Shown here piece by piece: positions 542 through 38,936 of a DNA stretch of 64,000 bases. Origin of the DNA: Patescibacteria group bacterium (GTDB taxonomy: Bacteria; Patescibacteriota; Patescibacteriia; PEXW01); NCBI GenBank assembly GCA_041665345.1, contig JBAYJA010000001.1, positions 73,206-137,205 on the forward strand. The letters run 5' to 3'. Position 1 is the first letter of the stretch; each line of letters begins with the position of its first letter. Position numbers and translations under genes: made by a program. The notes below the pieces were generated by a model. It saw only the letters and a program-made list of their open reading frames with translations. It had not been told where the DNA came from and searched no databases.

Positions 542-1204
542 ATGACGATGCGCAAAACATCGATCACGCCTCAGCAACTTGATCAGTTTCGTCAGTTAGG
601 CGAGGCTCGATTGAAAAAGATGGGTATCACCAGCGAAGAGTTCCAATTGGCAGTTATTGCCCAAGGTGGTGTCTACCAAGATAAGTTGGAGGAGATCATT
701 CGGGAAATGATAAAATTCCATCAACGTTCCATCGAGCCGCACATCCTTGCCCGCAAGACCTTTGACCCCGAGCAGTTCATCGGGGAAGGTTGGACGATTG
801 ACGAGCGGATCGGTAAGCGATCTGATGGCAACCTGGACGCCGGGCAGATTACACGAAAGGATTATTCCACATCCGATGTATCGTACATCAACGGCGAAGA
901 ACGCTTGCAATGCATCAAGATCACTCCGGATGACATTCAACTGGATGGCGAGGATTTCCTCGCTCTCTATGAGGAAAAAGATCAGTTGACTTTGCGATGG
1001 CTCTACGAAACCAAGGGTTTCGAATGGCTTTCCTTCTGGGGAATTATTCTGCGTGACCCAGAAGGCAACCGTAAGGTCCTGTACCTGTACCGGGACGTCG
1101 GCGGTTCCTGGGTCTGGCGCTGTCTCTGGGTCGACATCGACGATTGGTATTCCAGCATTCCTTCGGCTGTGCTCGCAAGCCCGCTCGCCGAAGCCAAAGC
1201 GTAG
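542..1204 (+). CDS. Hypothetical protein, 220 aa, paralogous to 17890..18552.
   Basis: ORF with RBS AAAGGAGCG upstream. Shares blocks with the second copy: FDPEQFIGEGWTIDERIGKR, DDIQLDGEDFLALYEE, YETKGFEWLSFWG, VLYLYRDVGGSWVW, IDDW. Confidence 0.6.
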   Translation: MTMRKTSITPQQLDQFRQLGEARLKKMGITSEEFQLAVIAQGGVYQDKLEEIIREMIKFHQRSIEPHILARKTFDPEQFIGEGWTIDERIGKRSDGNLDAGQITRKDYSTSDVSYINGEERLQCIKITPDDIQLDGEDFLALYEEKDQLTLRWLYETKGFEWLSFWGIILRDPEGNRKVLYLYRDVGGSWVWRCLWVDIDDWYSSIPSAVLASPLAEAKA

Positions 1205-16660: not shown

Positions 16661-17644
16661 CTACGGCTGCAATCCAACCTGCCGCATGACTTCCTGCAGA
16701 GTTTGCTCTGCGACCTTTGCAGCCTGGGCATTGCCTTTTGCCAGGGTTGCGACCAGTTTTTTTGGTTGAGCCAAGAGGGCTGTGCGTTCCTCGCGGAAAT
16801 GCCCAAAAGTGCGGTCTAGCACGCCAGCCAGTTCGCTCTTCAAATCCGAGTAGCGGATGGTGCCCGCAGCTTCTTCACGCTTGAAGTGCTTGGTAGCAGT
16901 AGCGTCAAATTGGTCCAGGATAGTCAGGAGATTTTCCACTCCAGGGTTTGCTTCGCCGCCTTTGGTGGCTGTCACTGCTCGGGCAAGTTTCTTGGTGATC
17001 GTCTCAGGCTCATCTGACAGGTTTATGACATGCTGGTCACCCAAGGACTTGCTCATTTTTTTGGTTGGCTCCAACAAGCTCATCACTTTCGGGGTAGGCG
17101 TCAGAATTACCTTTGGCTCTGGGAAAGTTTCGCCAAACCGAGTATTGAATTTCCGTGCGAGGGTGCGGGTGAGCTCCACGTGCTGCACCTGGTCTTGGCC
17201 CACGGGCACGCCAAAGGGTTTGTACAGCAGAATGTCGGCAACCTGCAGCACTGGGTAGGTGAAGAGGCCCACGTTCACGTTTTCTTTCTGCCGAGCAGCC
17301 TTGTCCTTGTACTGGGTCATGCGCTCCAGCTCGCCCATGGGGGTGAGGGTATTGAAAATCCAAGCCAGCTGGCTATGGGCCGGAATGGCAGACTGCAGGA
17401 AGATGGTGGAGAGCTTGGGGTTTAGCCCTAGTGCCAGGAAGGTTGCGGCCACTTCCAAAATGTCTTGGGTTTTTTGCTTGGGGTCAAAATTCTCCGTGAG
17501 GGAGTGCAGGTCAGCAATGAAGAAGAAGCAGTCGTACTTGCCGCTGTCCTGTAGGTCAACGAAGTTCTTCAAAGCGCCCAGGTAATTTCCCAGGTGGAGC
17601 TTGCCAGTAGGCTGGATGCCAGAAATGATGCGCGGTTTGGACAT
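16661..17644 (-). CDS. trpS: Tryptophan--tRNA ligase.
   Basis: KPRIISGIQPTGKLHLGNYLGA (HIGH-type motif) and KMSKS. Start chosen at MSKPRI. Confidence 0.9.
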   Translation of the reverse strand: MSKPRIISGIQPTGKLHLGNYLGALKNFVDLQDSGKYDCFFFIADLHSLTENFDPKQKTQDILEVAATFLALGLNPKLSTIFLQSAIPAHSQLAWIFNTLTPMGELERMTQYKDKAARQKENVNVGLFTYPVLQVADILLYKPFGVPVGQDQVQHVELTRTLARKFNTRFGETFPEPKVILTPTPKVMSLLEPTKKMSKSLGDQHVINLSDEPETITKKLARAVTATKGGEANPGVENLLTILDQFDATATKHFKREEAAGTIRYSDLKSELAGVLDRTFGHFREERTALLAQPKKLVATLAKGNAQAAKVAEQTLQEVMRQVGLQP

Positions 17645-17663
17645 GAGGGTAGTATACCTACCT

Positions 17664-17692
17664 ATTGACATAACTGCCAACCTGTGGTAGTA
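17664..17692 (+). promoter_or_regulatory. Candidate sigma70 promoter for 17890..18552: TTGACA-N17-TAGTAT with an extended TGn.
   Basis: TTGACA at 17664-17669; TGgTAGTAT at 17684-17692, with TATAAT overlapping at 17690-17695. Confidence 0.4.
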
Positions 17693-17736
17693 TAATTTGT
17701 TTCATAGCACCTTAAAAATTACTTGCAAAACCTAGG

Positions 17737-17839
17737 TAGTCATAGCCAAAAGTGACCGAAGGTCATCCTCTGGTCCCGCTCTACAGCGGGATGAATTCCG
17801 CGATAGAGTCCATTCTCGGTATTTTCTGGCTATGACTAC
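17737..17839 (+). promoter_or_regulatory. Structured 5' leader: a 13-bp closing stem enclosing at least two internal hairpins (possibly a third, weaker one). Candidate cis-regulatory RNA.
   Basis: GTAGTCATAGCCA (17737-17749) pairs perfectly with TGGCTATGACTAC (17827-17839). Internal hairpins TGACCGAAGGTCA and TCCCGCT-CTACA-GCGGGA. Related to the leader at 409..456. Confidence 0.45.
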
Positions 17840-17889
17840 TCACAGTGAGTATTTGAGCATTTACATAAACCAAGAAGGAGGATGTCGCC

Positions 17890-18552
17890 ATGTCAGATAA
17901 CATGCCCCCATCCACAGATACACCGATAACTAGCGAACAGATTGACCGGCTCTATGAACGGTTTGTCGCCGGTCTGAAGAGTGGGATCGCGAAGTACGTC
18001 CATGAGAGCGAAGGTACTGCGTTGGTTGACGAGTTCGTTGCTCTAGTGGGCCGACGTGTCGAAGCGCGTATGCACGTCGCGAATATGCGTATTGAACTAG
18101 ATGTGCTTAGTCGCCGACCCTTTGACCCCGTACAGTTCCTCGGGAATAACTGGCGTATCGTCGACCGGATCGGAAAGCGTGGCGGTGACAGTTTGCGTGC
18201 TAGCGACATTGTCAGTAAGGTCTATTTACACGAAGGCGAGACCAGTATCAATGGAGGAGAGCTCCCCAATCGTATCAAGGCTAACCCTGATGATGTACAG
18301 CTTGATGCCGAAGACTTTCTTGCCCTCTGGCAGGAAAACGGTCATAAGATGCTGAATACGCTCTATGAGACAAAGGGTATAACCTGGTTGTCATTCTGGG
18401 GAACCATTCTGAAGTCTATGGGCAGACGTTACGTTCTCTATCTGGGTCGGCACGACTACGGTTCCTGGTTTTGGAGCTTTGCTTTCATTGACGCCGACGA
18501 CTGGGATGCCGATCATCCCGCGGGTGTGTACAAAAGAAGTTCTTTGGGCTGA
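17890..18552 (+). CDS. Hypothetical protein, 220 aa, paralog of 542..1204.
   Basis: RBS AAGGAGGA. Shared blocks with the first copy: FDPVQFLGNNWRIVDRIGKRG, DDVQLDAEDFLALWQE, YETKGITWLSFWG, YVLYLGRHDYGSWFW, IDADDW. Confidence 0.6.
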   Translation: MSDNMPPSTDTPITSEQIDRLYERFVAGLKSGIAKYVHESEGTALVDEFVALVGRRVEARMHVANMRIELDVLSRRPFDPVQFLGNNWRIVDRIGKRGGDSLRASDIVSKVYLHEGETSINGGELPNRIKANPDDVQLDAEDFLALWQENGHKMLNTLYETKGITWLSFWGTILKSMGRRYVLYLGRHDYGSWFWSFAFIDADDWDADHPAGVYKRSSLG

Positions 18553-18563
18553 ATCTCAAAATC

Positions 18564-18611
18564 CTGCATCTTGATTTCGTTACAAACGAATGATGGATGC
18601 AGGGTTTTTTT
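18564..18611 (+). terminator. Rho-independent terminator.
   Basis: CTGCATC...GATGCAG hairpin followed by GGTTTTTTT. Confidence 0.6.
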
Positions 18612-38808: not shown

Positions 38809-38813
38809 AACTG

Positions 38814-38936
38814 GTTACGAAATACGAAATTTCGTACGAAAATACGAATTACGAACCCATTTACCAGCTAGTTGCAAGAGTAGTTGAAACCGTTCGTATT
38901 TCGTACTTTCGTAGCATTTCATTCGTAATTCGTAAT
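38814..38936 (+). repeat. Two inverted arrays of the (W)TACGAA heptamer, five TACGAA units then five TTCGTA units, flanking a 35-nt core; the array ends 5 nt before the groES ATG.
   Basis: GTTACGAAATACGAAATTTCGTACGAAAATACGAATTACGAAC ... GTTCGTATTTCGTACTTTCGTAGCATTTCATTCGTAATTCGTAAT, then TACTT-ATG. Confidence 0.6.

Follow-up and report, generated by a model that had tools for sequence, protein, structure and literature searches.

Stem-loops in 5′ untranslated regions (UTRs) that are processed by RNase III or bound by protein are familiar from the E. coli rnc and pnp leaders, phage T7 R1.1, and the lambda N leader. Integron attC sites are imperfect inverted repeats with a conserved unpaired position and a terminal structure of variable length. 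Diversity-generating retroelements (DGRs) are mutagenic, abundant in the candidate phyla radiation, and, to our knowledge, the only prokaryotic systems of targeted protein hypervariation; as far as we know, the expression and control of their target genes are essentially unknown. The nucleic acid elements described for DGRs include a template-repeat RNA with its spacer, a DNA hairpin/cruciform that is reported to adjoin the variable region (PMC3240598), and the motifs RT-1 to RT-19, which lie near reverse transcriptase genes and not near target genes (PMC5737381). The element analyzed here resembles these DGR elements in its conserved structure and its association with DGR cassettes but differs from them in lying at the 5′ end of target genes, orphan targets included, and in matching no Rfam model.

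We analyzed a stretch of Patescibacteria DNA of 64,000 nucleotides (referred to below as the 64-kb window), in which a long hairpin precedes the plus-strand gene 17890..18552, encoding a 220-aa protein. Two perfectly complementary 13-nt arms, GTAGTCATAGCCA (17736-17748) and TGGCTATGACTAC (17827-17839), were read directly from the sequence. The initial annotation had recognized this 13-bp long-range stem, starting it one base later (17737), and was right that it encloses a structured interior, although the enclosed length is 78 nt and not 77 nt. Both internal hairpins that it had listed, TGACCGAAGGTCA (17753-17765) and TCCCGC/GCGGGA (17774-17779 with 17786-17791), are present, as is a weak third one. 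The RNA from 17737 to 17839 folds with a predicted energy of -45.2 kcal/mol, compared with -24.0 +/- 3.5 kcal/mol for 200 dinucleotide shuffles (z = -6.05), none of which was as stable; the opposite strand is equally foldable (z = -6.56). The inverted repeat around 17736-17839 can be extended to arms of 24 nt with 83% complementarity, and by length it ranks second in the window.

The shorter counterpart that had been noted in the leader of a paralogous gene was also found. There, GCCATAGCTG (409-418) pairs with CAGCTGTGGC (447-456) around 28 nt, and CATAGC, AAAG, and TTTC are common to the two leaders. The paralogous gene (542..1204, plus strand) likewise encodes a 220-aa product, which is 42% identical to that of 17890..18552; it has its own terminator (1270-1293), and efp lies downstream of it on the minus strand.

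Neither 220-aa protein gave a match in Pfam or PADLOC, and in PDB sequence and fold searches the predicted fold matched nothing. A profile search recovered 399 relatives, almost all of them unnamed; those with a named source came mostly from Patescibacteria. At homologous loci, the C-terminal roughly 45 codons of the gene recur a few hundred bases downstream as noncoding, AAC-rich sequence. The gene copies of L002 and L013 depart from the downstream copy almost only at positions where the latter has A, while a few non-A positions differ as well at L003; template-repeat signatures were also seen at L001, L008, L009, and L066. Genes for bAvd and RVT_1 lie downstream of the family gene at L066, L069, L070, L072, L073, and L074, and bAvd and a reverse transcriptase were identified by phmmer at L001, L002, L008, and L009. 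The template and variable repeats of these homologs, together with bAvd/RVT_1, identify a family of DGR variable proteins, and by sequence the two "hypothetical" genes of the window are members of it, with the variable region of 17890..18552 at its C-terminal end (roughly 18440-18540). No template repeat, Avd, or reverse transcriptase was found within the 64-kb window, which marks its two genes as remote or orphan targets; both 17890..18552 and 542..1204 may be remote or decayed targets.

Some further features of these repeats were observed. The 3′ end of the variable region of the 17890 gene has diverged from the usual ...GTTCTCGCAA end of the family. Upstream of the template repeat (L002 5037-5160, L003 4903-5020, and L013 700-790) there is a conserved structured region made up of a hairpin, then ACGATACAAC, and then a CCCGAGAG...hairpin, and a conserved TTCTCYCC-loop-GGRGAGTTTTG hairpin comes directly after the template repeat. 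The structures flanking the template repeat probably belong to the DGR template RNA.

Upstream regions were gathered from Patescibacteria genome and metagenome contigs, and the element was identified in 20 leaders, that of the paralog included. All 20 align without gaps over the basal helix (P1), whose strands in the window are 17736..17756 and 17819..17839 (plus-strand coordinates). The conserved helix consists of (G)TAGYCATAGCCAAAAG plus 4 nt, paired with 4 nt plus (C)TTTCTGGCTATGRCTA(C), and the arm sequences read (G)TAGYCATAGCC / GGCTATGRCTA(C). Standard pairs fill 94.8% of the 400 cells of the 20-sequence alignment, and 12 of the 20 P1 pairs are changed on both sides. None of 500 shuffles of this alignment reached any of five pairing measures, a statistic that overstates independence, since the leaders are related. 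As a control, sliding the partner strand by 1 to 3 columns left only 29 to 45% of positions paired. A 16-sequence version of the covariation test was also run. Pairing is kept in relatives at about 30% protein identity as well. The initial annotation had suggested looking in the 5′ UTRs of homologs for a stem kept with covariation, and this is what the 20 leaders contain, with L066 (see below) as a leader that lacks the hairpin.

Two positions within P1 stand out. The position of A17749 and C17826 is mismatched in 17 of the 20 leaders (A.C in 12), and three positions inward of it a G.U pair, formed in the window by G17752 and T17823, is kept in 18 of the 20. With 21 to 26 bp and one mismatch, the helix is long enough for RNase III, whose substrates have near-continuous duplexes of about 20 bp or more. 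Compensatory differences are found even between copies in one genome, namely, between copies A and B of the window and between L064 3953-4012 and L064 2796-2855, which argues for base pairing rather than for duplicated protein-binding half-sites.

The part of the hairpin beyond P1 behaves quite differently. The window's interior (17757..17818, plus strand, with the hairpins at 17753-17765 and 17774-17791) is common only to L012 (75% identity to L012 589-689) and, in part, to L061. In L011, L064, L067, L068, and L072, the helix is extended by 4 to 8 bp and capped by a small A-rich loop; another insert is shared by L008, L009, and L071, and the inserts of L012b and L061 exceed 100 nt. Apical parts therefore differ widely, some being a simple loop and others unrelated hairpins that exceed 100 nt, and they have no conserved junction or pocket. 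The "cloverleaf" proposed by the initial annotation is accordingly not supported as the functional unit, and the variability of the apical domain fits recognition of the helix better than that of a pocket.

The hairpin itself can also be missing. L066 (171-263), a close relative of L014, lacks it and has a template repeat, Avd, and a reverse transcriptase in its vicinity; its leader looks as though the sequence between two direct repeats, the 5′ arm and a downstream near copy of that arm (the mimic, described below), had been cut out precisely. At least one close relative whose DGR appears intact can thus do without the hairpin. A different leader with two hairpins (type B) occurs in L004, L006, L007, L010, and L058, and leader types may swap at orthologous loci (L058 versus the 542 gene of the window). 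The element is old but replaceable. Two observations on these loci are added here: the type B leader (e.g., L058 3920-3990) has a small covarying hairpin followed by CAACYGCGRYTCCGAC-loop-TCGGR, and efp lies downstream both at L058 and at the 542 gene of the window, with recA also present upstream at L058.

A covariance model of P1 matched the window twice, at 401-463 (45.3 bits) and at 17731-17843. Over the 187 kb of Patescibacteria DNA collected, it matched leaders of family genes only, with two exceptions. One, L064 2796-2855, has the promoter-hairpin-mimic layout and the start-codon hairpin (see below) in front of a gene for a 209-aa protein (L064 2796-3543 region) that has no family-profile match and an hhalign probability of 0.3%. 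The other, L058 6920-6968, is a weak match (18.6 bits; E about 0.05) in which AAAGCCGTAGAGC...GCTCTATGGCTTT lies upstream of a methyltransferase gene. The window, L012, and L064 carry two copies each. With two copies per 64 kb and with matches in equivalent leaders in the 187 kb, the element does not have the distribution of a dispersed repeat of the MITE or REP type. A cluster of direct and inverted TACGAA(A/T)TACGAA repeats was observed elsewhere in the window (38809-38934).

Known RNA families gave no match, and viral contigs yielded no true copy. Rfam 15 at the gathering threshold found only two tRNAs in the whole window; at E<=10, it found only one spurious lncRNA match in 17600-17950, and at E<=1, it found nothing at the leaders of five homologous loci, in keeping with the initial annotation, which could assign the element to no known riboswitch class. 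In viral contigs, the 3′ arm alone gave 43 matches, all without the 5′ arm and in the number expected by chance. A gapped two-arm scan of viral contigs returned only one phage region (L075 5987-6053 / L076 931-997), with arm cores of 12 and 11 nt that lie 44 nt apart in apparently coding sequence; its flanks are unpaired, and we therefore judged the match to be due to chance.

These distributions bear on whether the element has a function at all. A hairpin-forming DNA insertion without function, that is, a small palindromic element or a template-switch quasi-palindrome that has persisted in the leader, would explain why the interior and the 3′ arm are flanked by a direct repeat, made up of the 5′ arm and the mimic, the GGTAGTC.. 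repeat on both sides being a trace of its origin. It would also fit the L066 leader, which looks like a leader minus everything between the repeats, the further unrelated inserted hairpins in the L001 and L005 leaders, and apical parts that behave as free insertions. We nevertheless consider such an insertion unlikely, because the element keeps the same position relative to promoter and gene at only 30% protein identity, is present in two copies in the 64-kb window and in none in the 187 kb away from such leaders, and has no two-arm copies in viral contigs. A decaying insertion would, moreover, lose the compensatory changes and the conserved mismatch position.

We then compared the two strands of the element. 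Outside the two special columns, G.U combinations outnumber A.C combinations (22 versus 8), and the sense strand folds better in 16 of the 20 leaders, with a mean of 3.7 kcal/mol (Wilcoxon p = 0.003, for nonindependent sequences). The excess of G.U and the energy bias toward the sense strand indicate that the transcribed strand is favored; against this stand the good folding of the opposite strand and the exchange of roles, on that strand, between the mismatch and G.U columns. The wobble and energy asymmetry speaks against a hairpin or cruciform that acts at the level of DNA, whether as a site of recombination or nicking or as a target feature related to DGRs. Such a role is suggested by the equal folding of both strands in the window and by the sequence conservation of the arms, as in sites read by recombinases. 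DGR homing is reported to use a DNA hairpin beside the variable region (PMC3240598); the leader element lies about 700 bp upstream of that region and does not adjoin it, is kept on orphan targets without a nearby reverse transcriptase, and is absent from L066, which has one. The leader element also resembles integron attC sites, being an imperfect inverted repeat with a conserved helix, a conserved unpaired position, and terminal structures of very different lengths. However, it lacks the attC R-box core (RYYYAAC ... GTTRRRY), does not occur in cassette arrays, has no recombinase consistently nearby, and has a promoter upstream in addition to its sense-strand wobble bias. On balance, a DNA-level role appears decidedly unlikely.

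The remainder of the leader is organized around the hairpin. A promoter-like sequence, TTGACA-17 nt-TAGTAT with TG upstream, lies at 17665..17693 (plus strand), where the initial annotation had placed a candidate promoter, so that the hairpin would occupy about nt 35 to 140 of the predicted transcript. The arrangement TTGACA-17-TGnTAnnAT was also seen, by eye, upstream of homologous leaders, and from promoters only we infer that the element is transcribed. The divergent upstream neighbor, previously named trpS, is indeed a class I Trp/Tyr tRNA synthetase. A conserved leader start, AGCACCTTAAAAA and then TTACTTGC (17706..17726, plus strand), was recognized by eye across leaders. An upstream ACTTGC part is able to pair with the sequence just 3′ of the hairpin to form an outer helix, P0; variants of it (CUUG/CAAG, UUGCGA/UCGCAA, and AUUUG/CAAAU) were found by eye in many leaders but not in all. 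Pairing of an upstream ACTAC motif with the 5′ arm was considered too and was discarded as too weak and inconsistent.

Beginning 6 to 13 bases past the 3′ arm is the mimic, a near copy of the 5′ arm that could replace it as the partner of the 3′ arm. It reads GGTAGTC-NNN-TAGCA in most leaders, GTGGCCATAAGCAG in L073, and GTGAGTATTTGAGCA in the window (17845-17859), where the alternative hairpin would span 17837..17859 on the plus strand (TACTCAC/GTGAGTA plus GCT/AGC). RNAalifold independently recovers the hairpin between 3′ arm and mimic, which is 93% paired and has four doubly changed pairs, some of them beyond the part shared with the basal helix, as counted on the same alignment from which the hairpin was derived. 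The mimic is retained in the distant relatives L072-L074, and the alternative pairing is kept in relatives at 30 to 37% protein identity whose N-terminus and start region differ. Since the basal helix is by far the more stable of the two structures, a spontaneous switch is unlikely. When the 5′ arm was blocked in silico, the alternative hairpin formed and the predicted accessibility of the ribosome binding site (RBS) was unchanged.

Downstream of the mimic come an A/C-rich spacer, ACATAAACC, from 17863 and the Shine-Dalgarno (SD) sequence AAGGAGG at 17875-17881 (together 17863..17881, plus strand). A second conserved structure, the start-codon hairpin (17880..17913, plus strand; GGAUG/CAUCC and CAUGU/ACAUG), encloses the start codon at 17890 by joining the end of the SD sequence (GGAUG) to codons 7 and 8 (CAUCC). 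It is present in every leader type, with 97% of cells paired, chiefly through conservation and wobble changes. The spacer between SD sequence and ATG, ATGWCGCC, was seen to be unusually conserved and belongs to this hairpin. After the coding sequence, an intrinsic terminator, CCTGCATC ... GATGCAGG followed by a T run, was read from the sequence at 18563..18611 (plus strand), which makes 17890..18552 monocistronic. The DGR family identity of the genes, the mimic with its alternative pairing, and the start-codon hairpin all go beyond the initial annotation.

This layout also argues against a stand-alone small RNA that acts in trans, whether made from its own promoter or cut from the leader, with its linkage to the gene being incidental or a matter of coregulation. 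A very stable hairpin with a conserved helix sequence, present in several copies per genome, would suit such an RNA. No U run or terminator comes after the hairpin on either strand, though, and none was called within 17736-17860 on the plus strand; the mimic is followed by an A/C-rich tract. The order promoter-hairpin-SD-gene is always kept, and no complementary target was identified. We regard a small RNA of this kind as very unlikely.

A metabolite riboswitch with the multihairpin interior as its aptamer is unlikely, in our estimate extremely so: the 5′-leader location, the long P1-like closing stem, and the mutually exclusive pairings (5′ arm/3′ arm versus 3′ arm/mimic) are those of riboswitches and attenuators, but the interior varies from leader to leader (a plain stem ending in an A-rich loop in L011, L064, L067, L068, and L072 and unrelated hairpins elsewhere), there are no conserved junction nucleotides and no conserved ligand pocket, Rfam gave no match at permissive thresholds, no U-run terminator follows the alternative hairpin in the window and no coupled helix that hides the SD sequence is predicted there, the two states differ greatly in stability, and the genes downstream encode variable binding proteins and not metabolic enzymes or transporters.

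Three narrower readings were also dropped. A translational switch was abandoned since opening the basal helix in silico left the predicted RBS accessibility unchanged. Autoregulation by the encoded protein was rejected on the grounds that the same hairpin is found on distant members with a different N-terminus and on the unrelated 209-aa gene of L064. For a tRNA-like structure or a T-box, neither ARAGORN nor Rfam gave a match here.

The element is very probably a regulatory RNA. Our preferred reading, to which we assign a probability of roughly 0.5, is that it is a cis-acting, sense-strand 5′-UTR RNA of Patescibacteria DGR variable-protein genes whose helix is read by a protein or an RNase. 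The cis-acting regulatory leader proposed in the initial annotation thus survives as a conserved structured leader, present in 20 leaders with compensatory changes and downstream of a conserved promoter, whereas its riboswitch-like character does not, given the variable interior; the protein-binding leader that it offered as the other option, widened to include processing, is the best remaining reading. As an RNA motif, the element is undescribed but of a familiar kind, and its DGR variable-protein context is new.

According to this preferred reading, the functional core would be the helix of 21 to 26 bp, largely conserved in sequence, with its mismatch (usually A.C) and the G.U pair three positions inward, and the tip of the helix would be free to vary between a small A-rich loop and additional hairpins of over 100 nt. 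The helix would be read by a trans-acting factor and not by a small molecule; RNase III or another double-strand-specific RNase, and a dedicated RNA-binding protein, are the likeliest candidates, and the helix would then set mRNA stability or translation. Once the 5′ arm was cut off or occupied, the mimic could pair with the 3′ arm and so produce another defined fold, which might, for example, be a hairpin that protects the 5′ end of the processed mRNA. Because transcription yields the basal helix first and this helix is much the more stable one, we favor processing followed by refolding over a spontaneous switch. The closest parallels are the leaders processed by RNase III, which share the long, near-perfect helix of about two turns, the defined mismatch, and the irrelevant tip, and in which processing would similarly leave a 5′ end that can refold. 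The present element differs from them in that the sequence of its helix is conserved across distant genomes and that a mimic of the 5′ arm is kept downstream; cleavage or binding is here only a candidate activity.

A more specific version of this reading would make the element a control element particular to DGRs, an RNA handle common to every variable-protein mRNA in a cell, through which a dedicated factor couples their expression or processing to mutagenic homing. We put this forward as a speculative and rather improbable extension. If it held, the DGR template RNA would carry the handle as well in cases of a cotranscribed template repeat.

For the biology of these bacteria, the analysis reannotates the two "hypothetical" genes of the window as DGR variable-protein genes. 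With the leader motif, the entire target regulon of a genome, orphan targets included, could be traced, and the motif offers a concrete RNA for tests of processing or protein binding. Should the DGR-specific version prove true, no cis-regulatory RNA would have been known before this element for DGR targets or for surface or ligand-binding diversification in Patescibacteria.
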